Origin: Thermoanaerobaculia bacterium
Lineage (GTDB): Bacteria; Acidobacteriota; Thermoanaerobaculia; Multivoradales; JAGPDF01
Assembly: GCA_963699245.1 (NCBI GenBank)
Contig: OY969426.1
Span: forward strand, 1,326,316-1,390,315
Direction: 5' to 3'
Length of the DNA stretch: 64,000 nt
Under the pieces are notes generated by a model. It did no database searches, was not told where the DNA came from, and worked only from the letters and a program-made list of their open reading frames with translations. Positions within the stretch are counted from its first letter, which is position 1. Every line of letters starts with the position of its first letter. The translations under genes were made by a program, and so were the position numbers. Below are positions 2,721 through 13,753 of this stretch, piece after piece.

Positions 2721-2948
2721 ATGAAGAGCGAGCTCCTCGACGAAGCCCGGCGCCTGACCCTCGACGAGCGGATCGACCTCGTCGAGGCGATCTGGGACAC
2801 GATCCCCGAGAACGCGGATCGTGACCAGCTCGCGGTGCCGGAAGCACATCGGGAGGAGCTCGACCGCCGCCTCGATGCGATGCGAGAGCATCCCGAGGCG
2901 TCGCGCCCATGGGGCGAGGTTCGCGCTCGCCTCGAGCGCGACCCTTGA
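2721..2948 (+). CDS. Putative addiction-module antitoxin component (TIGR02574-like)
   Basis: 75 aa, MKSELLDEARRLTLDERIDLVEAIWDTIPE…; its stop overlaps the start of the next gene (TTGA). Confidence 0.65.
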   Translation: MKSELLDEARRLTLDERIDLVEAIWDTIPENADRDQLAVPEAHREELDRRLDAMREHPEASRPWGEVRARLERDP

Positions 2949-3244
2949 CCGCCGAGCTTCGACTCCTTTCTCCAGCCGAAGACGACCTCGCGCGAGCCCG
3001 CGCCTGGTATGAAGCCCGCAGACCCGGGCTCGGCGGCGCGTTTCTCGACGCGATTTCCTCGCATCTCGATCGCATCGCCGAGCGCCCGCAGCAGTACCCT
3101 GTCGTCTACCGCGGCCTTCGGCGAGCCGTAGTGCGCCGCTTTCCCTTCCTGATCTATTTCGCCTCCCGCGACGGCAAGGTGACGGTCGTCGCTTGCCTTC
3201 ATGCCCGCCGCCATCCCCGTCGGCTCTCTCCCCGGGCACGCTGA
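2945..3244 (+). CDS. RelE/ParE-family toxin
   Basis: In-frame TTG at 2945 overlaps the antitoxin stop. The sequence …WYEARRPGLGGAFLDAISSHLDRIAERPQQYPVVYRGLRRAVVRRFPFLIYFASRDGKVTVVACLHARRHP has a ParE-like fold signature. Confidence 0.6.
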   Translation: MTAELRLLSPAEDDLARARAWYEARRPGLGGAFLDAISSHLDRIAERPQQYPVVYRGLRRAVVRRFPFLIYFASRDGKVTVVACLHARRHPRRLSPRAR

Positions 3245-3300: not shown

Positions 3301-4638
3301 ATGCGCCTTCGGCTCCTCGCCCTCGCTTTTTTCGCCTTCGCCGCCCCTGCCGCACGCTCCGCACCGGCGGATCCCCCCGCCGCCCCGACGGCCCAGCACC
3401 GGGTGGTGCTGGTCTCGATCGACGGGATGTCCCCTTCGGCCTATCTCGACCCGGACGGCCAGGGGCTGAAGGTTCCGAACCTGCGCCGCCTGAAGGCCGA
3501 GGGCTCGTACGCCCGCGCGGTCGTCGGCGTGCTGCCGACGAACACCTACCCGTCGCACACGACGATCGTCACCGGGGTGCCGCCGCGGGTGCACGGCATT
3601 CTCGGCAACCAGATCTTCGATCCCTACGGGACGTCGAACGAGGCCTGGTACTGGTACGCGGACGAGATCAAGGTCCCGACCCTCTGGACGCGCGCCAAGG
3701 ACGCCGGCCTGGTGGTCGGCTCGGTGGCCTGGCCGGTGACGGTGGGCGCGAAAATCGACGCGCTCGTCCCCGAGTACTGGCGCAGCGGCTCGACGAACCC
3801 GCACGACCTCCACCTCCTGCGCGCCCTCTCGACCCCGGGCCTGGTCGAAGCCGTCGAAGCGAAGCTCGGCCGCGACCTCACGTGGCCCCCGTCCGACGCC
3901 GACCGCACGGAGATCGCGCTCCACATCCTGCGGACCTACAAACCGCACCTCCTGCTCCTCCACCTCGGCGAGCACGACCACTTCCAGCACGCCAACGGCG
4001 TCGGCTCGCCCGAAGCGAAAGCCGCGCTCGAACGCGACGACGCCGAGCTCGGCCGTCTGCGCGCGGCCATCGCGGAGCTCGGGTTCGAGAAGGAGACGAT
4101 ATTCGTCGTCGTCTCCGACCACGGGTTTCTGCCGACGAAGATCTCGTTGCATCCCAACGTGCTGCTGCGCGAGGCGGGGCTGATTACCACCGACGAGGCC
4201 GGCAAGGTGAAGAGCTGGCGGGCGATGTTCTGGACACAGGGGGGGACGGCGCTGCTGCGGCTTGCTGATCCCAGGGACACGGAAGCACTCGACAAGGCGA
4301 GAGCGACTCTGGCCACGAAGGTTGCAGAGCAGAATTCCGGGCTAGAAGCGATCCTCGAGCCGACGGAGATCGAAGCGCAGGGCGCCGATCCGGCGATAAC
4401 GCCGCTGGTGCTGGATGCGAAGAGTGGCTATCGCTTCGACCGCGACGCGGTCGGCGGATGGAGCGGACCTGCGAAGGATGTGGCGGGGCATGGCTACTCG
4501 CCGACACGATCCGTGCTCGCAGCGTCCTTCCTGCTAGCGGGCCGGGGCGTCGAACGCCTTGGCGACGAGGCGCCGATGAGCATGACGGCGATCTTCGCGA
4601 AGGTCCTCGCGTCGGTCGAGGTGCAGCCGGGATCCTGA
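3301..4638 (+). CDS. Secreted ectonucleotide pyrophosphatase/phosphodiesterase (type I phosphodiesterase/NPP family, alkaline-phosphatase superfamily)
   Basis: Signal peptide MRLRLLALAFFAFAAPAARSA; …VVLVSIDGMSPSAYLD…TYPSHTTIVTGVPPRVHGILGNQ…VVSDHGF… are the typical NPP metal-site motifs. Confidence 0.85.
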   Translation: MRLRLLALAFFAFAAPAARSAPADPPAAPTAQHRVVLVSIDGMSPSAYLDPDGQGLKVPNLRRLKAEGSYARAVVGVLPTNTYPSHTTIVTGVPPRVHGILGNQIFDPYGTSNEAWYWYADEIKVPTLWTRAKDAGLVVGSVAWPVTVGAKIDALVPEYWRSGSTNPHDLHLLRALSTPGLVEAVEAKLGRDLTWPPSDADRTEIALHILRTYKPHLLLLHLGEHDHFQHANGVGSPEAKAALERDDAELGRLRAAIAELGFEKETIFVVVSDHGFLPTKISLHPNVLLREAGLITTDEAGKVKSWRAMFWTQGGTALLRLADPRDTEALDKARATLATKVAEQNSGLEAILEPTEIEAQGADPAITPLVLDAKSGYRFDRDAVGGWSGPAKDVAGHGYSPTRSVLAASFLLAGRGVERLGDEAPMSMTAIFAKVLASVEVQPGS

Positions 4639-4651
4639 GAGGGAGATCTCC

Positions 4652-6937
4652 TCAGGGTGCCGACACGCGGACGCCCGCACCAGAAGCCCGCGCCATCGGC
4701 TCCCGCTTCACGCGCGCCCAGGCCTGCCAGATTCGTCGCCGTTCCTCCGCGGTCAGTTTCCAGGAGAGTGGTCCGAGGCCCTGCAGATCGAAATCGAGAA
4801 CCTCGACCTTCACGCCTCGCGCCTCCCATTTCGCCTCGAAGAACTCGAGCTCGAGGCCGTTGCGCTCTTTCTGAGAGGCCTCGCGAACTGACATCAAGGT
4901 CTCGAGCGGAGCGAGACCGGCCGTCACCCAGGCGGAAGAGCTGCGCACTGTCGGCAGCGGCTTCACGTTCGGATCGAACGGAGACAGGCGGATCAGGACG
5001 ATTGGTGGCGCCAGGCAGCTGGTAAGACCAGGACAGTGGCGTGCCAACGCGCCGTCCAGGATTTCGAGCGCCGAAAGCAGCCCGGAGTTCTCCGTGTACC
5101 CGCCGTCGACGAAATGCGCCTGCGGAAGATTCCTCTCGTCGGAACCCTTCGATACCCGCGCCCGCGAGGCGAGGCTGACGAAGGGAAAGCTCGCCGAGAG
5201 GCGCGCCGCAGTGCCGACTTCCACATCCTTGCCGGTGAAGGCGGCGAAGAACGAGCTCGGCGCCGCGCCTCCCTCGATCGCCAACGTCGGTAGAACGAAC
5301 CGTTCGCCCGTCTCCACCGCCGTCGCATTGAGCAACACGAAGGGCTTCTTTCCCGCCCTCGCGTCGCGTCGCCACCCGGCGAGTGTCGGCGCGCCCGACA
5401 ACCGGTGCCGCCAGCTCTGCTCGAGCGCCCAGCTGCGATCCACCTCGGGCCAGAGCGTCGCGACGGGGAAGGAGAAGAGGATCCGCAGCAGGTCGGGATA
5501 GGCGAGGCCCCAGGCCGCGGCGTCGAGGCTGGAGGCGGAGGCGGCTGCGCGGATCGCGGCGACGCGGTCGGCGGAGAGCGGGCCCATGGCTCCGATACCG
5601 GCGAGCGGCGCGTCGGGCAGGCGGTCGACGAAGAACATCGCACCGACCGCGCCCCCCGAAACGCCCGAGATCAGCTTCAGCGACGCCAGGAACTCGCCGC
5701 CGCCCTCACCGGAGGCGAGCCCGGTGAGGGCGGCGGCGGTCCAGGCGCTGGCGGTGATCCCCCCGCCCGCCGCGGCCACCGCGATGATCGGGCGCGGCGG
5801 CGAGCTCCCGTCCCCCTCGAACCAGCCGTCGACGACGTCGAGATCCTCGTCCGCCCGCGCCGGCAGCGGCGCCGCCGGCGCGCGCAGCGCGAAGTAGTGG
5901 TCGGCGCCGAAGGCCGTGTAGAGCAGCGCCGAAACGAGCAGCAGCGCCGGCACTACCGGCACCCGGAAGCGGTCGAGCAGGAACGAAAGCGCCGGCAGCG
6001 CCCAGGCCGCGACGTTGAGGACGAGCAGCAGCGCTCCGAGCGCCGGGAGCGACGGGTCACGATCGCGCGGAAACTCCGCGATCCCGACCGCGACGTAGAC
6101 GAGAGCGCTGGTCGCGAAGAGCCCGGCGGCGGCGAGATGCCCGGTATGCAGATAGCGCCTCCCTTGCGGGTCGACCCAGACATAGCCAGGGCCGAAAGGA
6201 GCGCGGGCGAGGAACGCGGTCAGCCACTCGCGCAGCCGGCGGGCGAAGCGCGGCGTGTGCAGGCGGCCGAAGACCGCCAGCGCGCGACCGGCGCGCGTGC
6301 CGCCGGCGAAGCGATGGCGCGTCTCCGGCGGCGTCAGCCAGGCGGTGGCCAAAGCGCCCCAGGAGCGGAGCAGCTCGGCGGCGGCGAGACCGGCCGCGAT
6401 CGCCAGCAGCCGGTCGATCGCGGCGCCCTCCGAGCGCCGGCCGGCGATCGCCAGCGTCGGCAGCGCCAGCGCGAGCGCCACCGCCGGCGCCCCGGCGGTG
6501 AGCCGGGACTCCCAGCGCCGCTTCGTCCCCCAACTGCGGCGAAAGGCGTTGCGGAACTCGCGGAAACCGAGCCGGATGGCGTCTTCCGCCGCCGGCGACT
6601 CGAGCCCCGGCCAGAGCCGCAGGGGACCGTTGCGGGTCGACGTCCAGAGGGTGGCGACGATCGAATGCCCGAGCAGCTGCGCCAGCGCCGCCACCACCGC
6701 CAGCTCCGCGCCGGAGAGGACGAAGAGGTTGGCGAAGAGCGAGGCCCCCCAGGAGATGGCGAAGAGAGGGAACGCGAAGAAAAGGAGCGCGACGCCGAGA
6801 TGGAAGCGGTGAAACAAGAGCCAGGTGAGGGCGGAGCGCAGACCGGAGACGCTCGGGGAAAGGAGGACTGCACGCCCGCCGGTCCCTCGCGCTCCGTCCC
6901 CCACCTGACTCATTCCGTCGTTTCGTCCGTCAAGCAA
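4652..6937 (-). CDS. Patatin-like phospholipase with a roughly 370-aa N-terminal polytopic membrane domain
   Basis: The C-terminal half carries AAGGGITASAW (oxyanion), GVSGGAVGA (GxSxG) and FVDGGYTENSG (DGG). The N-terminal half contains multiple hydrophobic helices. The start codon is uncertain. Confidence 0.8.
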   Translation of the reverse strand: MLDGRNDGMSQVGDGARGTGGRAVLLSPSVSGLRSALTWLLFHRFHLGVALLFFAFPLFAISWGASLFANLFVLSGAELAVVAALAQLLGHSIVATLWTSTRNGPLRLWPGLESPAAEDAIRLGFREFRNAFRRSWGTKRRWESRLTAGAPAVALALALPTLAIAGRRSEGAAIDRLLAIAAGLAAAELLRSWGALATAWLTPPETRHRFAGGTRAGRALAVFGRLHTPRFARRLREWLTAFLARAPFGPGYVWVDPQGRRYLHTGHLAAAGLFATSALVYVAVGIAEFPRDRDPSLPALGALLLVLNVAAWALPALSFLLDRFRVPVVPALLLVSALLYTAFGADHYFALRAPAAPLPARADEDLDVVDGWFEGDGSSPPRPIIAVAAAGGGITASAWTAAALTGLASGEGGGEFLASLKLISGVSGGAVGAMFFVDRLPDAPLAGIGAMGPLSADRVAAIRAAASASSLDAAAWGLAYPDLLRILFSFPVATLWPEVDRSWALEQSWRHRLSGAPTLAGWRRDARAGKKPFVLLNATAVETGERFVLPTLAIEGGAAPSSFFAAFTGKDVEVGTAARLSASFPFVSLASRARVSKGSDERNLPQAHFVDGGYTENSGLLSALEILDGALARHCPGLTSCLAPPIVLIRLSPFDPNVKPLPTVRSSSAWVTAGLAPLETLMSVREASQKERNGLELEFFEAKWEARGVKVEVLDFDLQGLGPLSWKLTAEERRRIWQAWARVKREPMARASGAGVRVSAP

Positions 6938-7733
6938 TCACCCGCTGCGCGCGCAACGCGCTCTCGAACGCCTTCGCCACCCGCATCGATCCCTTGCGGT
7001 TGGGATGGATCTCGTCCTTCCACTGGTCGATCACGACGCCGCGCGTCTCGACGCGGATCAGGCGCCCGGCGCCGCGCGGCTCGGCGGCGACGGCGTCGAT
7101 CGCTGCGCAGAAGCCGTCGATGAGCAGGCGGACGACGTCCGGCCAGAGCGCCCTGGGGATCTTCCGCTTCTCGAGCGCCGGCTGGAGCCAGGGTCCGGTG
7201 AGCTTGAACGGCCCGACGTAGACGGCGCCCTTCTTCGACGGGATCACGTAGTCGTAAGAATTGACGAAGACCTTGGTCGTGCGGCCGGCGTCGTCGAGCA
7301 GATCGAGCAACTCGCGGTAGCAGTCCTGGATCTGCCGCAGGCGGCGCTCGAAGCGCGAGCGCGCGATCAGATCGGGCGCCTGCGCGCCCGGCGCGTAGTC
7401 GCGCAGGAGCGGCGGCAGATCAGCGCCGATGATGTCGTTGCCGCCGCCCGAAAACAGCAGCGCATCGATCGGAAATCCCTCGAAGATCGTGCGCAGGATC
7501 GCCCGCTGCGCGCCCGAGAGGATCGTCATCACCTCGTCGCCGGCCTTCTCGAGCCGCAGCAGGCACCAGGCGCGCTGGAACTTCGGATCGCCGAGATCCT
7601 GCGGATCGTCGAGCTGCCCGATCGCGTCGGCGTAGGAGAACCACGAGTCCCCCTCGCTGACCACGACGGGCCACTTCGGATGCTCCCGGCGGGAGCGGAT
7701 GAAGTCGGCGAGGAGGGGGCGGAGGTAGGGCAT
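6930..7733 (-). CDS. SGNH/GDSL-family hydrolase
   Basis: VVVSEGDSWFSY (GDS block) and DEIHPN (catalytic DxxH). It overlaps the patatin gene by 8 nt. Confidence 0.8.
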   Translation of the reverse strand: MPYLRPLLADFIRSRREHPKWPVVVSEGDSWFSYADAIGQLDDPQDLGDPKFQRAWCLLRLEKAGDEVMTILSGAQRAILRTIFEGFPIDALLFSGGGNDIIGADLPPLLRDYAPGAQAPDLIARSRFERRLRQIQDCYRELLDLLDDAGRTTKVFVNSYDYVIPSKKGAVYVGPFKLTGPWLQPALEKRKIPRALWPDVVRLLIDGFCAAIDAVAAEPRGAGRLIRVETRGVVIDQWKDEIHPNRKGSMRVAKAFESALRAQRVIA

Positions 7734-7745
7734 CGCGGGTTCCGT

Positions 7746-9077
7746 CTAGTTCCCCGGGCAGGTCGCGCCGGGAAGTCGCGACTGAATACCCTCCCGCGTC
7801 CACTCGGCAGGGTCGTGCGAGGCTGTGTGATCGAACCAGAGCGGCAATGCGAGCTCTGCGATGCGCGGATCTCGGAACTCCTGGCCGCCGCGGTCCGCCA
7901 TGACGACCAGGTCGAGATGCACGCGGACCGCGTACAGGCTGGAGAACTGGGTGAAGTCGGGCCAGTAGAGGTCCGCGTGGACCGGCACCGAGAGCAGCAC
8001 GGCACGGCCGAAGCGGCGCGGCGGGAAGCCGCCGATGCCCCGGCTGGCGAGAAAGACGACGTTCCCGCCATGGCTGTGCGCCCAGACGTTCAGACAGTCG
8101 GCGCCGTGGCTCTTCGCCCAGTCGTTGAGCAGGATCGCGCCCTCGCGCCGCGCCGCGTCGCTCCACGCTCCCGACCAGGCGAAAGGATCTCCTGGATCGG
8201 AATAGAGGTCGGGGACCCAGGTCTTGAGGTAGTCGTGGAAGGCCCCACCCGGGGGCCACCAGCCGCCGTGTGCCGCCCAGGTGCCGTGAACGATCAGGCT
8301 GGTGTGGGCGGGGCGCTGTGGCGGCTTCGGATTCGGCATTGCGGTCAGAGCGCCCAATGCCGGATGCAGCGGATCGAGCCGAGCGAGGCAGGTCGCGGCG
8401 ATATCCCGCAGCAAGTCGTCCTTTGAGTCGACCGCGCGGGCCAAGTCGGGAACGATCCGCTCTGTCGTCTCTCCTGCCTCGAGGATCTCCGGAATCGAAC
8501 AAGCCGCGGCGAGGTGAACGAGCGGATCGGGGTCGTCGAAGCCGGCCAGCAGCGCCAGCGCGACGGTTCGCGCCGCCGGAGCTTCGAGCGCGCGATCGAC
8601 GAGTTCCTTTTCCATCTGAAGTGACCCAGCCCTGTCGAGCCCGGCGAGACGCTGCTCACCCATTTGACGTCGGAGCTCCAGTCGAAGCGCTCCGAGCGTC
8701 GTCCGCTCGACTTGAGCCTTGCTGAGCCCATAGATCCGTTCCGAGACTCCGAGAGCCGCGAGATCTTCCGGCGGCAGAAACGCCTCCGGTTGCTGTCTTG
8801 CGCATTCGGCGCTCTGGTTGGCGATGCACAGCAGCTCGCCGAAAGCGAGCTGAATCGCGGCTCGTGACTGTGCGGCCCGACGATCGTCCACCATCGCATC
8901 GCGTGCGCCGAACGGAGCTGGTTCGCGAACTCGGGGGTAATCGGAGGCCGCGTGCGCGGCGGCAACTCCAATCAGGCATGCCGAGGCAAGAGCGAACAGG
9001 TGCCAGGCCTGGGCAAGCCGCCTGCCGACCTGCTGCGAGCGCCCGGAAGGCATTCGCTGTCGCTCTCGAGCGTTCAT
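7746..9077 (-). CDS. Secreted alpha/beta hydrolase with class-2-lipase-like motifs and an N-terminal HEAT-like repeat region
   Basis: The internal start MNARERQ… (aa 123 of ORF 7746..9443) is preceded by GGAAGGA. The signal peptide is LFALASACLIGVAAAHA. LIVHGTW and VWAHSHGGNVV resemble the Bacillus LipA AHSMGG motif. Its ATG overlaps the upstream gene's TGA (ATGA). Confidence 0.65.
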   Translation of the reverse strand: MNARERQRMPSGRSQQVGRRLAQAWHLFALASACLIGVAAAHAASDYPRVREPAPFGARDAMVDDRRAAQSRAAIQLAFGELLCIANQSAECARQQPEAFLPPEDLAALGVSERIYGLSKAQVERTTLGALRLELRRQMGEQRLAGLDRAGSLQMEKELVDRALEAPAARTVALALLAGFDDPDPLVHLAAACSIPEILEAGETTERIVPDLARAVDSKDDLLRDIAATCLARLDPLHPALGALTAMPNPKPPQRPAHTSLIVHGTWAAHGGWWPPGGAFHDYLKTWVPDLYSDPGDPFAWSGAWSDAARREGAILLNDWAKSHGADCLNVWAHSHGGNVVFLASRGIGGFPPRRFGRAVLLSVPVHADLYWPDFTQFSSLYAVRVHLDLVVMADRGGQEFRDPRIAELALPLWFDHTASHDPAEWTREGIQSRLPGATCPGN

Positions 9078-10471
9078 GAATCTTCCTTCCCCTTGTCGAC
9101 CGACCACTTCAATCCGGCGAGCAGGCTCAGTTCCTTGTTGACTTCGCCCCGGAACTCGGGCCGGTTCGCCCAGACGAGGGAGACGGCGAGGCTGGAGCCG
9201 CCAGCGAGCTTCTCGACCGTCTTGTTGAGCGCCTGGGTCCAGGTCGCGGTGGCCACGAACCGGCTCTGGCGGCGCTCGTCGTCGGTCTGGTCGTACTTCG
9301 CCTCCAGGTCGAATCTCGTTCGGTGGTTGATCGACAGCACCTGCCCATAGATCAGCTTGGCGCTGTAAATGTCGTCGGTCGGCAGGCTGATATCGAGCTC
9401 GGTGCCCGGAACGACGAACGAATAATTCCGAGTCCGTGACCACTCGCCGATGAAGGTCAGTCGCGGTTGCCGTTCCGCCCAGGCCGGCTTGCCGTCGAGA
9501 TATCGCATGAGGTCTCCGGCAGTGCGGAGGCGGCTGCCGCCTTCGCAGCTGCCCTCGCAGAACCCTTTGAGACTCTTGATGCCGTACTCATAGCGGACGC
9601 TTGCAGCGGCGACGTCTGGTCCCGCCGCGCCGACCCGCCGGCGATAGGAGAGCGCTACAGAGCCGACCGAATCGTTGTCCTCGAGCATGGGAAGCGTCTC
9701 GATCAGCCTTGCGTCCATCGCTTCTCCAAGCGCAACGATTTGCACGTCCTTCGGATCTGCTTCCCTGATCGCCTGCCGCGCTGCCTCCCGGCTGTCGGCA
9801 GAGCTCTCGAAAGGCGCCGACTCCTGGAAAGTTGGTCGACTGCTGGACTGCAGCTGGGCGTCATCCCGGCTCTGGCGCTCGCGGTGGGCGATGGTGATCG
9901 AGTTCTTCACAATCTGCCGGGCCACTCTGGCGACGGAGAGCTCCGACGTCTCGGGCTTCTTGCTGCTCCAGAGGATCGCCACCTCGACGTCGTCGAGATC
10001 GTCTAATCCACCCTCGAGAGCCTTGGCTGCATCGGCTCGTTCGCCTTCCGGAAGCGTCTGGATCCCCTCGACGACCGGCGCATAGAGCTGCGACTTCCTC
10101 ACGACGACCTTCGACGAGAGCATGCCCTTCTTGACCAGTTCTTCTCCCCATCTCGGATTGAAGTTGAAGGTGATCTGACCGTTGTCGTCCTCCACCGCGC
10201 CAAGATCGAGCGCCACGAAGAAGCGCTTCGCGAGGTCGAGCTTGCCGCCCCCGAAACCGTCGCTGTTCGCGGTCTCCGCGATCTTGTGGAACTCAGCGGT
10301 CGCTCGCAGAGCAAACTCCTCCTGCAGCGCGGCCGAAATTCGCAACTCGTCGCCGGAAATCACGTCCTCAGTCGCCTCGTCCGAGGGAGTGTCCGCCGCT
10401 CGAACGGGCGCGGAGTGGACAAGCCAGCATCCACACCACAGCAGCAACGAAACTCGGACCACTCGGAACAT
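9074..10471 (-). CDS. Secreted hypothetical protein (466 aa) with a K/S/N/I-rich, low-GC-like composition
   Basis: Internal start MFRVVRVSLLLWCGCWLVHSAPVRA (signal peptide) at aa 34 of ORF 9074..10570. No domain was recognised. It is the first gene of the four-gene operon. Confidence 0.6.
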   Translation of the reverse strand: MFRVVRVSLLLWCGCWLVHSAPVRAADTPSDEATEDVISGDELRISAALQEEFALRATAEFHKIAETANSDGFGGGKLDLAKRFFVALDLGAVEDDNGQITFNFNPRWGEELVKKGMLSSKVVVRKSQLYAPVVEGIQTLPEGERADAAKALEGGLDDLDDVEVAILWSSKKPETSELSVARVARQIVKNSITIAHRERQSRDDAQLQSSSRPTFQESAPFESSADSREAARQAIREADPKDVQIVALGEAMDARLIETLPMLEDNDSVGSVALSYRRRVGAAGPDVAAASVRYEYGIKSLKGFCEGSCEGGSRLRTAGDLMRYLDGKPAWAERQPRLTFIGEWSRTRNYSFVVPGTELDISLPTDDIYSAKLIYGQVLSINHRTRFDLEAKYDQTDDERRQSRFVATATWTQALNKTVEKLAGGSSLAVSLVWANRPEFRGEVNKELSLLAGLKWSVDKGKEDS

Positions 10472-10663
10472 GATCGCCCCCTGCCGGCCAGCGCTCGAAC
10501 CGCGAGCATTCGTTGCTCGGGCGGCGCCAGAACCTGCTTGACCGGTGTCCTCCTTGGACGGACTCACCACGCCCCTTCCACCCCGGAAAATCCCCCTTTC
10601 GTCACGACCAGTCGGTACCCCTTACTTATTAGACGAACGGCGAAGCCAAACCGAACAGATTTC

Positions 10664-10692
10664 TTGACCGGAACCCGGGGCGGACTTACGAT
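10664..10692 (+). promoter_or_regulatory. Candidate promoter for the ECF sigma gene (TTGACC-N17-TACGAT); an ECF-like GGAACC element lies immediately after the -35 box
   Basis: ttcTTGACCggaacccggggcggactTACGATccg, followed by AAGGAGG at 10711-10717 and GTG at 10724. Confidence 0.4.
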
Positions 10693-10723
10693 CCGCAGCG
10701 ATCTGGGGGAAAGGAGGCAGGCG

Positions 10724-11314
10724 GTGGCGGCCGGCAGGCGGACGGCGGGGGCTCGCGCCCCGCGACGGAGGGGGTTGGCCGGGCTGGCGGAGCTCTCTCC
10801 CCTGCTCGAGCGACTGCTCCCCTCCATCCGCGCCTGGGCCCATGGCCGCCTGCCGAACGGAGCGCGCAGCCGGATCGAGACCGGCGACCTCGTGCAGGAA
10901 GCGGCGGTCGGCGCCCTGCAGCACCTGCCGGACGAGCGGCTCGCCTGCCCGGCGACCCTCCGCAGCTACATCCAGACCTCGATCCAGAACCGCATCGTCG
11001 ACGAGCTGCGGCGCGCCGGCCGGGTCGAGACGTCGGATCCCGAGGCCGAGACGCGCGCCCTCGACACCGCGCCGTCGCCGCTCGAGGCCGTCATCGACGC
11101 CGAGGACCGGCACCGCTTCCGCGCCGCGCTGGCGGACCTCGACAACGACGAACAGATGCTGGTCGTCGGCCGCGTCGAGCTCGGCTACTCCTACCGGCGG
11201 CTCGCGCTGGCGACCGGCCGCGCCACCGCCGACGCGGCGCGCGTCGCCACCCAGCGCGCCGTCCTCCACCTGGCGCGCCTGATGGGCCGCCACCGCGCGC
11301 AGCCGCGCGCCTGA
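10724..11314 (+). CDS. ECF-family RNA polymerase sigma factor (sigma-70 regions 2 and 4)
   Basis: A GTG start with AAGGAGG 7 nt upstream. The sequence …LLERLLPSIRAWAHGRL…DLVQEAAVGALQHL…LRSYIQTSIQNRIVDELRR… (region 2) has a C-terminal HTH (region 4). The upstream part of ORF 10286..11314 is non-coding-like. Confidence 0.8.
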   Translation: MAAGRRTAGARAPRRRGLAGLAELSPLLERLLPSIRAWAHGRLPNGARSRIETGDLVQEAAVGALQHLPDERLACPATLRSYIQTSIQNRIVDELRRAGRVETSDPEAETRALDTAPSPLEAVIDAEDRHRFRAALADLDNDEQMLVVGRVELGYSYRRLALATGRATADAARVATQRAVLHLARLMGRHRAQPRA

Positions 11315-11341: not shown

Positions 11342-13753
11342 ATGATCGGAGAACAGCTCGGGCACTACCGCATCCTCGACCGGCTTGGCGCCGGCGGCAT
11401 GGGAGAAGTCTGGCTGGCCGAGGATCTCGAGCTCGGGCGCAAGGTCGCCATCAAGACCCTGCGCCGCGACGTCGCGGCGACGCCGACCCAGCGGGCGCGC
11501 TTCGAGCGCGAGGCGCGCTCCGTCGCGGCGCTCAATCACCCCAACATCGTCACGCTGTACAGCGTCGAGGAGGCCGAAGGCCTTCGCTTCCTCGTCATGG
11601 AGTACGTCGAGGGGGTGCGCCTCGGCGACCGCATCCCCAGCGGCGGCCTGCCGCCGGGCGAGGCGCTCAAGCTGGGCGCCGCGATCGCCGACGCGCTCGC
11701 CGCCGCGCACGCGCACGGCATCGTTCACCGCGATCTCAAGCCGGGCAACGTGCTGCTGGCGCCCGACGGCCGCGTCAAGGTCGTCGACTTCGGCCTGGCG
11801 CGCGCGCTCGGATCCGACGCCGCGCCGTTCCGGGGGAGCCGCGGCGAGACCACGCTGACCCAGGAGGGCGTGGCGCTCGGCACCCTGAACTACATGTCTC
11901 CCGAGCAGCTCGAAGGAGCGACGGTCGATCACAGGTCCGATCTCTTCTCGCTCGGGGTCGTCCTCCACGAGATGATCACCGGCCAGGTGCCCTTCGCCGG
12001 CGACTCGGCGGTGCGGGTGATCTCGGCCATCCTGCGCGACCGCCCCGACCGCGTCGACGTGGCATCGCGCCACATCCCCCCGTCGGTGGCGGACCTCGTC
12101 GAGCGCCTGCTCGCCAAGGATCCGGCCGATCGCCCTGCCACCGCGGCCGAGGCGCGCGACATCCTCCTCGACGCTCTGCGCCTGATCGGCGCCGCGACGA
12201 CGGCGACCGACCTGCCGCGCACGCTCGGCCGCCGCGGCCCGCAGGGATCAGCGGCACGGCGCCGGCGGCGCGCGACCGTCGCGGCGACGCTCGCCCTCCC
12301 CCTGCTCGGCCTCGCGCTCTGGCTCGGCCGCTCGCGCCTCCACGGCGGGGAGCCCGCCCCCGGCAGCGCCGCCGCGCCGCCCGCGATCGCCGTGCTGCCG
12401 CTGGCGAATTTCTCGGGCGATCCCGACTTCTTCGTCGACGGCATGACCGACGGGCTGATCGGCGCGCTGGCGCGCGTCGAAGGGCTGCGCGTCATCTCGC
12501 GCCAGTCGGTCATGCGCTACAAGGGCTCCGACAAGCGACTGCCCGAGATCGCCAAGGAGCTCGGCGTCGACTACATCGTCGAGGCCTCGCTCCGCCGCGA
12601 GGCCGGGCGCCTGCGCGTCCAGGCGCAGCTTTTCCGCCCGGCGCCGGAAGAGCAGCTCTGGAGCGACGCCTTCGAGCGCCCCGAGCCGGAGGTGCTGGCG
12701 CTGCATGCCGACGTCGCCCGTGCGGTCGCCGGCGCCGTCCACGTCGTCATCCCGGCCACCCTCGCCGTTCGCTTCGAAACGGCCCGCTCCGTCGAGCCGG
12801 CGGTCTACGAGGCCTACCTGCGCGGCCGCCACCTGGTCGAGGAGTCGCGGCCCGAGAGCCTCCAGCAGGCGCGAGATGCCTTCGACGAGGCGCTCGAGCC
12901 GGATCCGAAGTTCGCCCCGGCGCACGCCGGCCTCGCCAGCGCCTTCGGGTTGCTCGCCTACCTCTTCCAGGAGCCCGCCGCGAACGCCTCCCGTCAGGAG
13001 GCGGAGGCGCTCAAGGCGATCGAGCTCGATCCCGACCTCGCCGAGGCCTACGTCGAGCTCGGCGACCTGCAGCGCTACTTCCGCTGGGACTGGAGCGCCA
13101 GCGAGACGAGCTACCGCCGCGCGCTGGCGATCGACCCGAACAGCGCCGCCGCGCACCGCGGGCTCTGGGGCCTGCTGGCGAGCCTGGGCCGGCTCGCCGA
13201 GGCGCGGCTCGAGATCGAGCGCGCCCGCCAGCTCGACCCGCTCTCGGCGGCGATCGAGAACGATCTCGGCTACCAGGCGATCTTCGAGCTCAAGCTCACT
13301 CTCGCGAAGGTCGCGTTCCGCCGCGCTCTCGAGCTCGACCCCGCCTTCCCCTCGGCCCACGGCGGCCTCTGGCTGGTCGCCGATCTCGAGCGCGACGATC
13401 CGGCGCGCACGCAGGAGATGCTGCTCTGGCTCGACGGCATGGGCTACGGCTGGGCCGCGGACGCCGCCCGCGGCGACGGCAAGCCGCGGGCCTACCGTGA
13501 AGCGGCGCGCGACGCGGCGCTCGCGCTCGCGGCGCGGCGCTCGGGCCAGCGCATCTCTCTCGGCGTCGGCGGCGCGCTGCTGGCGAGCGCCGGCGAGCTC
13601 GACGTCGCCGCGGCCTGGCTGCGCCAGGGCTACGAGGAGCGCGACCCCGAGCTCGTCTGGCTCGCCCTGGATCCCTCCTGGCGGGCGCTGCGCGCCTCGG
13701 AGAGCTTCAGGACGATGGTGGCCGCGATGAAGCTGCAGCCTCGTGACCGCTAG
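11342..13753 (+). CDS. Ser/Thr protein kinase with a C-terminal TPR-repeat domain
   Basis: YRILDRLGAGGMGEVWLAED…AIKTL…HRDLKPGNVLL…DFGLA (Hanks kinase motifs). A transmembrane segment is followed by TPR-like repeats. Confidence 0.85.
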   Translation: MIGEQLGHYRILDRLGAGGMGEVWLAEDLELGRKVAIKTLRRDVAATPTQRARFEREARSVAALNHPNIVTLYSVEEAEGLRFLVMEYVEGVRLGDRIPSGGLPPGEALKLGAAIADALAAAHAHGIVHRDLKPGNVLLAPDGRVKVVDFGLARALGSDAAPFRGSRGETTLTQEGVALGTLNYMSPEQLEGATVDHRSDLFSLGVVLHEMITGQVPFAGDSAVRVISAILRDRPDRVDVASRHIPPSVADLVERLLAKDPADRPATAAEARDILLDALRLIGAATTATDLPRTLGRRGPQGSAARRRRRATVAATLALPLLGLALWLGRSRLHGGEPAPGSAAAPPAIAVLPLANFSGDPDFFVDGMTDGLIGALARVEGLRVISRQSVMRYKGSDKRLPEIAKELGVDYIVEASLRREAGRLRVQAQLFRPAPEEQLWSDAFERPEPEVLALHADVARAVAGAVHVVIPATLAVRFETARSVEPAVYEAYLRGRHLVEESRPESLQQARDAFDEALEPDPKFAPAHAGLASAFGLLAYLFQEPAANASRQEAEALKAIELDPDLAEAYVELGDLQRYFRWDWSASETSYRRALAIDPNSAAAHRGLWGLLASLGRLAEARLEIERARQLDPLSAAIENDLGYQAIFELKLTLAKVAFRRALELDPAFPSAHGGLWLVADLERDDPARTQEMLLWLDGMGYGWAADAARGDGKPRAYREAARDAALALAARRSGQRISLGVGGALLASAGELDVAAAWLRQGYEERDPELVWLALDPSWRALRASESFRTMVAAMKLQPRDR

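Follow-up and report, generated by a model that had tools for sequence, protein, structure and literature searches.

Genes and junctions at the locus

The window, by which we mean the whole 64,000-nucleotide stretch of DNA that was analysed, contains five open reading frames, here called genes A to E, which lie at the stated coordinates and which, with the features beside them, are arranged as follows.

2909 to 3244, plus strand: ParE-family toxin gene (PF05016 match, E=4.6e-8)
3301 to 4638, plus strand: gene E, exported phosphodiesterase of the NPP/alkaline-phosphatase superfamily
4652 to 6913, minus strand: gene D, polytopic N-terminal domain of about 340 aa (about 7 TM) followed by a patatin-like phospholipase domain; alternative TTG start at 6937
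6930 to 7733, minus strand: gene C, SGNH/GDSL hydrolase without a signal peptide
7746 to 9077, minus strand: gene B, exported protein with HEAT repeats and an α/β-hydrolase domain
9074 to 10471, minus strand: gene A, exported 465-aa protein, probable outer-membrane β-barrel
10472 to 10700, no strand assigned: divergent promoter and leader region, common to the window and the orthologous locus L002
10724 to 11314, plus strand: ECF sigma factor, divergent from A–D; start at 10724 (GTG) or 10775 (TTG)
11342 to 13753, plus strand: Hanks-type Ser/Thr kinase with C-terminal TPR repeats (Pkinase and TPR matches)

The products of A, B, C, D and E are 465, 443, 267, 753 and 445 aa long, respectively, and are identical to gene calls of public assemblies, on a 3.8-Mb contig. 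The TGA of A lies inside the ATG of B in a 4-nt overlap (ATGA) and 12 nt separate the TAG of B from the ATG of C, both being directly legible in the sequence, as the original prediction had described them. The 8-nt overlap it gave for C and D holds if the putative TTG at 6937 serves as the start of D, whereas the ATG at 6913 of the public gene call leaves a gap of about 16 nt. With boundaries equal to the public calls and overlaps and gaps read directly, the tightly packed minus-strand cluster A–D is real. No terminator-like site was found on the minus strand inside A–D, and the four co-directional genes form a translationally coupled cluster, very probably with a single transcript. Genes D and E are convergent, their stop codons lying 13 nt apart, so that E is transcribed separately from A–D.

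Folds and catalytic residues

No Pfam, NCBIfam or PADLOC model matches any of the proteins encoded by A–D, and their family assignments therefore hold only at the level of profile and fold. At this level the proposal of three different acyl-ester-hydrolase folds in one coupled unit is upheld, the catalytic motifs being present and conserved on alignment in B (36 homologues), C (53) and D (25); the earlier remark that the combination is not a recognised system agrees with the lack of a matching model. Gene A probably encodes an exported outer-membrane β-barrel. Gene B carries LIVHGTW and AHSHGG motifs, within which 36 homologues share H264-G-T, the HG oxyanion motif, and H336-G without exception and S335 with few exceptions; acid and His residues (D389/D395 and H417/H421) are conserved in the expected order after the nucleophile elbow, and the protein thus bears a putative Ser335/Asp/His triad. 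The HEAT repeats are evident from the match of the family profile to alphaRep/HEAT structures (E~1e-21) and from HEAT_2 matches in 26 of the 36 members. The fold match of the hydrolase domain is weak, consisting of Pfam matches to Hydrolase_4 (16 members), PGAP1 (9) and Abhydrolase_6 (4) and of one esterase in the PDB (7c4d, E=0.0012). Gene B thus keeps its description as a secreted HEAT-repeat α/β-hydrolase but loses the label “class-2-lipase-like”, as PF01674 (Lipase_2) is absent at E<=0.1 from the matches of all 36 family members.

Gene C is predicted from its sequence to encode a cytoplasmic SGNH esterase. Blocks I, II, III and V (GDS30, G, GGGND with N99/D100, and DEIH243) are conserved in the 53 family members, G28-D29-S30, S95/G97 and D100 being invariant and N99 and H243 nearly so. 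The protein itself matches no Pfam or NCBIfam model; within its family PF13472 is matched by 37 of 53 members and PF00657 by 13 of 53, and the family profile matches GDSL lipase structures weakly (E=0.006-0.4). Escherichia coli TesA (thioesterase I / lysophospholipase L1) is among the closest known relatives in kind; gene C keeps blocks I, II, III and V with their Ser, Gly, Asn and His, and one source annotates an orthologue as a “lysophospholipase L1-like esterase”. However, TesA is located in the periplasm whereas gene C has no signal peptide, and the C family forms a separate large clade (1844 representative clusters) whose domain is elsewhere fused to Trypsin_2, Peptidase_S8, CHAT+FHA, Endonuclease_NS (a nuclease) and phosphoesterase domains, a pattern more typical of conflict and cell-death systems.

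Gene D can be retained as a patatin fused to a large polytopic N-terminal domain. The patatin α/β/α fold is present and the Ser-Asp dyad is intact, with G383-G-G, S419 in GVSGG and D603-G-G invariant among 25 homologues. The window protein has no Pfam (including PF01734) or NCBIfam match at E<=0.01, and several of its homologues carry precomputed PF01734 matches. In the oxyanion loop the invariant glycines are followed by I-T-A, so that the loop reads GGGITA in place of the GGGx[K/R]G expected of patatin-like phospholipases and the usual Arg/Lys is missing. The N-terminal domain, of about 340 aa and about 7 TM, has no Pfam or PDB relative and sets gene D apart from CapV/CapE, PlpD, plant patatin and iPLA2β; its own invariant residues are R36, G258-H259, D314-R315, R317 and D338-H339. 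PlpD further differs in its POTRA/β-barrel fusion, for which gene D has no counterpart. Structurally the catalytic domain is closest to the CBASS effectors CapV and CapE, but the CapV-like match is a generic one, as patatin, iPLA2β and PlpD score equally well. Other systems among the closest known are the AT3-SGNH O-acetyltransferases OafA/OatA, which combine a polytopic membrane domain with an SGNH domain, and the PAP2 lipid phosphatases.

Conservation of the neighbourhood

Genes C and D recur together, on the same strand and either adjacent or at most 7 kb apart, in 7 of 9 close-clade loci (the window, L002, L003, L004, L016, L174 and L175). In L002, L003, L016, L174 and L175 a C orthologue (62-73% identity) precedes D, and L004 has a frameshifted copy (34-41% identity) directly upstream of D; at L094 a C orthologue occupies the syntenic site without D. 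Of the two genes C is the more conserved, identities among D orthologues ranging from 39 to 69%. The flanks are syntenic as well: L174 has ECH at 83% and MscL at 63% identity, and L175 has orf311 and SLT-LysM at 52-55%. This points to a vertically inherited site into which A–B and E plus ParE were inserted in this genome. Judged on this pattern, the resident unit of this part of the chromosome, passed on by vertical descent, appears to be the pair C and D. The pairing belongs to the close clade: among distant homologues, D (78 loci) and C (80 loci) are not paired with each other. Because only C and D stay together in related genomes, the cluster is a mosaic specific to this lineage, and the five genes do not constitute a dedicated system of lipid attack. 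Co-localisation elsewhere, the lack of which was to refute the original prediction, does not recur for A, B or E.

Gene E gives a full-length match to PF01663 that covers profile positions 1-341 of 342 and scores 162.5 bits (cut-off 23; E=2.7e-47), and the claim of a convergent, secreted NPP-family phosphodiesterase stands; its membership of a system does not. Apart from the window, gene E occurs near D on L001 alone, a contig from another sample that carries a nearly identical copy of the locus and on which an Unstab_antitox gene is called beside ParE; it is absent from all other related loci, including the seven other D-orthologue loci and those of A and B homologues. Together with ParE it occupies a segment between D and the syntenic orf311/SLT-LysM genes that is missing in L175, and another small gene takes this position in a syntenic relative. 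Gene E would thus be an unrelated neighbour that arrived with the ParE toxin-antitoxin module downstream of D, outside the conserved unit. These observations bear directly on a possible role in phosphate scavenging, in which D, C and B would deacylate phospholipids to glycerophosphodiesters and E would cleave these with release of phosphate. The position of an exported phosphodiesterase immediately downstream invites this reading, as does a B homologue at L007 that adjoins a Phosphodiest-TPR protein and an ECF sigma gene. However, the L007 protein is 32% identical over 119 aa (E=0.001), E is both convergent to A–D and co-located with the toxin-antitoxin insertion, and the neighbourhood holds no Pho-type regulator or phosphate transporter genes; with E absent from the related loci, the role suggested earlier is very improbable.

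Genes A and B are lineage-specific additions to the cluster. Their composition is distinct (GC3 of 0.77-0.80, with B at 0.77, against 0.87-0.95 for C, D, E, the sigma factor and the kinase), and they seem to have entered between C and the conserved promoter/leader, where relatives have a second membrane patatin, a PLD, an S8 protease and TPR proteins instead. No partner from among A, B, C or D was seen at the five loci of B homologues or the four of A homologues. Homologues of B, most of which stand alone and have no signal peptide, sit in unrelated gene contexts, and those of A are always accompanied by an upstream gene for a 108-118-aa protein (4 loci), which is missing in the window. It could be argued from this independent distribution, from the composition and from the missing companion of A that A–B were merely inserted behind an existing promoter and share no function with C–D, serving instead in an unrelated periplasmic or outer-membrane role. 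This is rather unlikely, since coupled expression seems to have been selected for, to judge from the ATGA overlap and 12-nt spacer, and since the genes inserted at the same site in three other lineages are again lipid hydrolases, namely a second TM-patatin in L002 and in L003 and a PLD in L175. A functionally random insertion would hardly produce such a repeated outcome, and to this extent the lipid-hydrolase theme of the original prediction is borne out in relatives.

A different role for C–D and their variable partners would be that of a conflict or programmed-cell-death module, anti-phage or kin-directed, in which a signal through the kinase and sigma factor leads to destruction of the cell's own membrane, as by the CBASS effector CapV. 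Such a module might account for the resemblance of D to CapV and CapE, the fusion partners of the C family, the S8 protease and TPR protein between C and D in L003, the gathering of variable genes and a toxin-antitoxin pair at the locus, and the patchy spread of the D family over Acidobacteriota, Nostoc, Planctomycetota, Chloroflexota and heliobacteria. However, none of the five proteins A–E matches a PADLOC model, and the surrounding genes, which encode a sigma factor, a kinase and housekeeping functions, include no cyclase (as CBASS would have), NTPase, STAND or other sensor. The locus is moreover syntenic and chromosomal in relatives, not a mobile island; the wider D and C families have no conserved defence-type neighbours; and the likeness to CapV is shared with patatin, iPLA2β and PlpD. 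We consider such a module unlikely. As for an outward-directed weapon, T6SS Tle lipase effector-immunity pairs likewise encode several lipase folds together, but a scan of the products encoded within about 20 kb showed no T6SS, VgrG/PAAR or immunity-like genes, and with D integral to the membrane and C cytoplasmic neither would be a secreted toxin. The antibacterial or defence effector set proposed earlier finds no support, there being no secretion system, immunity gene or sensor to mark a weapon or a defence system.

Probable regulation and a proposed model of envelope-lipid turnover

The promoter/leader region contains blocks 88-100% identical to L002, though a different gene comes first downstream in each. 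On the plus strand, positions 10664-10692 carry a sigma-70-like TTGACC-17-TACGAT; the region has no Rfam match and no unusual RNA fold, nor was a recognisable ECF-type promoter motif found. The sigma factor beyond it matches PF04542 (Sigma70_r2) and is 70% identical to that of L002, and the kinase (Pkinase match, E=3.6e-51) shares 74% identity with its positional counterpart there. An ECF sigma gene adjoins C–D in the window, L002, L003 and L174; the sigma factor of L174 differs in type and has a TPR protein as its partner. In the window sigma factor the canonical DAED is replaced by ETGD before LVQE, and replacement of DAED is a hallmark of kinase-activated ECFs (PMC8999054). The order of a sigma gene followed by a Hanks-type STPK and the Thr-containing ETGD in region 2.2 liken it to the kinase-activated ECF43 type (EcfP/PknT, EcfK/PknS), a likeness of features and not a group assignment, and the kinase probably activates the adjacent sigma factor. 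The known ECF43-type examples, however, control polymyxin resistance or T6SS, not lipases.

From the gene structure, folds, catalytic residues and co-occurrence pattern we infer substrates, regulation, topology and a physiological role. Our preferred reading, in which we place about even confidence, is that C–D form a membrane-lipid deacylation pair, probably under the control of the kinase-linked ECF sigma factor, with A–B as lineage-specific additions. This model proposes that an envelope signal would activate the kinase, which would phosphorylate the sigma factor, and that the sigma factor would then drive the operon. D would strip acyl chains off membrane glycerophospholipids at the membrane surface, and C would hydrolyse such acyl esters as are left (lysophospholipid or acyl-thioester); B and A may, in this lineage, carry hydrolysis or transport further, to the periplasm and the outer membrane. 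The positive-inside rule puts the patatin domain of D in the periplasm, so that D and C, the latter having no signal peptide, may work on different faces of the membrane, and a simple two-step pathway becomes harder to uphold. The substrates could also be non-lipid esters, especially for B and C. Overall the deacylation pair would, under stress, turn over or remodel the lipids of the cell's own envelope. A bolder and quite doubtful extension is that C–D are the fixed core of an undescribed lipolytic locus that swaps its accessory genes under kinase and ECF sigma control, recruiting lipid hydrolases (α/β-hydrolase, second TM-patatin, PLD) behind one conserved promoter/leader, and that the 7-TM domain of D, no mere anchor, would be a functional lipid-handling or catalytic domain (e.g., PAP2-like) feeding the patatin domain.

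Gene layout and family assignments

The locus comprises four minus-strand genes (A–D) and a convergent plus-strand gene next to D (E), in a window of about 72% G+C:

10471-9074, minus strand, open reading frame of gene A
9077-7746, minus strand, open reading frame of gene B
7733-6930, minus strand, open reading frame of gene C
6913 or 6937 to 4652, minus strand, open reading frame of gene D
3301-4638, plus strand, open reading frame of gene E, convergent to A–D

The original prediction had described these five reading frames, and their layout is confirmed by the frames and junctions themselves, by public gene calls on a 3.8-Mb contig that reproduce all five translated products residue for residue, and by the lack of any terminator-like hairpin on the minus strand inside the A–D cluster. 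The C-D-E segment is also identical in L001, a near-identical copy of the locus from a second sample. The coordinates match the sequence, as do the ATGA overlap of A and B, the 12-nt gap between B and C, and the 13 nt between the stops of D and E. However, the 8-nt overlap proposed for C and D holds only with a TTG start, the public call being an ATG 16 nt past the C stop. As A–D had no match at E<=0.01 in Pfam, NCBIfam or PADLOC, and none upon direct search of PDB sequences, their originally motif-based assignments were re-examined using homologue-family alignments and structure models. Each component can be placed in a known superfamily.

The N-terminal 340 residues of the patatin D form about seven transmembrane (TM) helices, and G383-G-G, S419 (GVSGG) and D603-G are invariant in an alignment of 25 homologues. 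Invariant polar residues of the TM domain include R36, G258-H259, D314-R315, R317 and D338-H339, and neither Pfam nor the PDB has a sequence related to this domain. Lys and Arg counts per loop in the 25 sequences agree with an N-in, seven-helix topology, and by the positive-inside rule suggest that the patatin domain would sit outside the cytoplasm. Relatives of D are found in at least 569 species-level genomes of Acidobacteriota, Nostoc and other cyanobacteria, Planctomycetota, Chloroflexota and heliobacteria.

The SGNH clade to which C belongs numbers 1844 representative clusters by exhaustive HMMER search; GDS30, G97, N99/D100 and H243 are kept in the C family, PF13472 is matched by 37 of 53 members, and C has no signal peptide. 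Elsewhere, this SGNH domain is fused to Trypsin_2, Peptidase_S8, CHAT+FHA, Endonuclease_NS or a phospholipase-C-like phosphoesterase (P0092, P0140, P0192, P0198, P0216, P0223, P0224, P0230, P0182), a set of partners reminiscent of conflict or cell-death effectors. The main rival to the reading favored below is that C–D constitute such an effector module, for which the protease, CHAT+FHA and nuclease fusions and the likeness of D to CapV and CapE may be cited; we consider this unlikely, however, as D matches the fold of housekeeping patatins equally well, PADLOC is silent, no sensor or cyclase is present, and the locus is syntenic and chromosomal.

Across 36 B homologues, HGT, A-H-S335-H-G-G, D389/D395 and H417/H421 are conserved. 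The B family profile matched HEAT/alphaRep structures at 1e-21, its matches to esterases were weak, and Pfam returned weak matches only, to Hydrolase_4, PGAP1 and Abhydrolase_6; the proposed likeness of B to class-2 lipases was not borne out, Lipase_2 being absent from these matches. Within the family, signal peptides are confined to B itself and its closest homologues.

Conservation of the C–D pair and mosaic origin of the cluster

Neighborhoods were collected for homologues of each of the five genes. C lies upstream of D in seven of nine close-clade loci (six relatives and the window), and is missing from L015 and from L014, where just 2 kb of upstream sequence is present. The C orthologues of related loci are on the same strand as D and 62-73% identical, apart from a frameshifted copy in L004 (34-41% identical).

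C–D spacing in related loci
L002, one gene between
L003, 7 kb
L004, adjacent
L016, 3 kb
L174, adjacent
L175, 4-nt overlap

The L004 homologue (9218-9977) occupies two reading frames (9218-9595 and 9600-9977) directly 5' of D, reflecting a frameshift (pseudogene) or else misassembly. Beyond the close clade the pairing stops: among 78 more distant D loci, neither C nor any other recurrent partner was found, and 80 metagenomic C-family loci held no D; ORF clustering around 84 D-family and 80 C-family loci revealed no further conserved partner, only shadow ORFs of high-GC DNA and generic families. C can be retained where D is missing: at the syntenic site in L094 (1068-3438), the SLT-LysM gene lies within ~0.75 kb downstream of a C orthologue of 70% identity, with no D between. 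Upstream of a C orthologue in L100 (5-6063) is a tandem array of three Hanks-type kinase genes with 43-45% identity to the window kinase.

The homologues of A and B were never found near other members. Those of B in L005-L009 adjoin glycosyltransferases, penicillin amidase, or PlsC/LpxD, with no A, C or D nearby. In L007 (7542-11353), a Phosphodiest(NPP)-TPR gene and an ECF sigma gene are transcribed divergently from the B homologue, a loose likeness to the B, E and sigma neighborhood of the window that is probably coincidence. Only four A homologues were identified (L010-L013), with no B, C or D nearby, each preceded by an overlapping gene of 108-118 aa:

L010 7804-8157, small gene 5' of the A homologue
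L011 9654-10004, small gene 5' of the A homologue
L012 4853-5179, small gene 5' of the A homologue
L013 3279-3635, small gene 5' of the A homologue

From its recurrence in these sequences, the pair looks like a conserved two-gene unit; the small gene has no Pfam match, and a search of the window did not find it there.

The C–D site is syntenic among relatives. ECH (83% identity) and MscL (63%) lie on the sigma side both in the window and in L174, and orf311 (52%) and SLT-LysM (55%) lie beyond D in the window and after D in L175. Compared with L174/L175, the window has two insertions: A–B, between the promoter region and C, and E with a ParE toxin gene, between D and orf311. GC3 is 0.80 in A and 0.77 in B, versus 0.87-0.95 in C, D, E and the sigma and kinase genes.

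E is an NPP-family enzyme (PF01663 over its full length) and, the near-copy L001 aside, was found in no related locus examined. The ParE-family toxin gene (2909-3244, plus strand; L001 4526-5046) is directly upstream of E, and an Unstab_antitox antitoxin is called beside it on L001; E and ParE together fill the interval between D and the syntenic orf311/SLT-LysM. Convergent and missing from related loci, E is not part of the conserved unit, and on the same grounds the phosphate-scavenging role originally suggested through E is very improbable.

Other lineages carry different genes in the cluster. L002 and L003 encode a second TM-patatin of about 895 aa (L002 5044-7731; L003 7123-9810), from a family that is unrelated to D and has GGGIRS / SGGG / DGGH motifs split by a TM region; L175 encodes a PLD with two HKD motifs; and L003 and L016 include an S8 protease, TPR proteins and unknowns. 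Members of the second membrane-patatin family were also observed near more distant C-family genes on two metagenome contigs (L119 632-2926; L163 791-1708). The lipid-hydrolase flavor of the site thus recurs, but its membership does not. With only C–D recurring, the dedicated module of the original prediction is not conserved as a whole: its lipid-hydrolase theme stands, whereas the five-gene "phospholipid-attack" combination is a lineage-specific juxtaposition. That the genes form an operon of convenience, with no function in common, is hard to dismiss for A–B; we judge this reading unlikely, and the repeated recruitment of lipid hydrolases to the same site in other lineages weakens it.

Sigma factor, kinase and a model for the C–D pair

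Divergent from A are an ECF sigma gene (PF04542; 10724..11314, plus strand) and a Hanks-type kinase gene with TPR repeats (11342..13753, plus strand), whose L002 counterparts are 70-74% identical; an ECF sigma gene likewise adjoins C–D in both L003 and L174. At the DAED position of canonical ECFs, the window sigma reads ETGD and that of L002 ETAD. Phosphorylation-activated ECFs such as ECF43 (EcfP/PknT, EcfK/PknS) are marked by the loss of DAED and an adjoining STPK (PMC8999054). Intergenic blocks upstream of A (10540-10700, minus strand) are 88-100% identical to L002 3179-3354, and the first downstream genes are unrelated. Within the conserved region lie a ~70-nt leader and, for the sigma gene, a sigma-70-like promoter; inspection by eye found no convincing ECF-type -35/-10 or sigma-54 motif in the block. 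Examined as a possible structured RNA (fold z-score +0.87, no covariation in two sequences, no Rfam match), the leader was rejected as a recognizable riboswitch. It may contain a short upstream ORF (VVSPSKEDTG...), 28 codons long in L002 and, in the window, sharing the reading frame of A. We infer that the operon is a target of the adjacent sigma factor.

Taken together, these data permit a model to which we give about even credence, in which C–D are a resident membrane-lipid deacylation pair. Envelope signals would act through the kinase and sigma factor to induce C–D. D would be the phospholipase A or lysophospholipase of the pair, and C would supply lysophospholipase or thioesterase-type esterase activity; in the lineage of the window, the exported hydrolase B and a predicted outer-membrane barrel, A, would have been appended to the pair.

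No description of this gene combination was found in the literature, and as far as such searches show, the C–D pairing, the C-type SGNH clade and the 7-TM-patatin architecture are likewise undescribed; in the Lipocone paper, patatin and SGNH appear merely as occasional neighbors of unrelated domains. We do not regard the finding as a new kind of system. No Pfam, NCBIfam or PADLOC model captures the A–D proteins, which nonetheless come from large or widespread uncharacterized clades. Conserved as a pair next to a kinase-linked ECF sigma gene, the SGNH and membrane-patatin genes offer a testable entry to two poorly understood subjects: envelope-lipid turnover in Acidobacteriota, and the question of what kinase-activated ECF sigma factors regulate.
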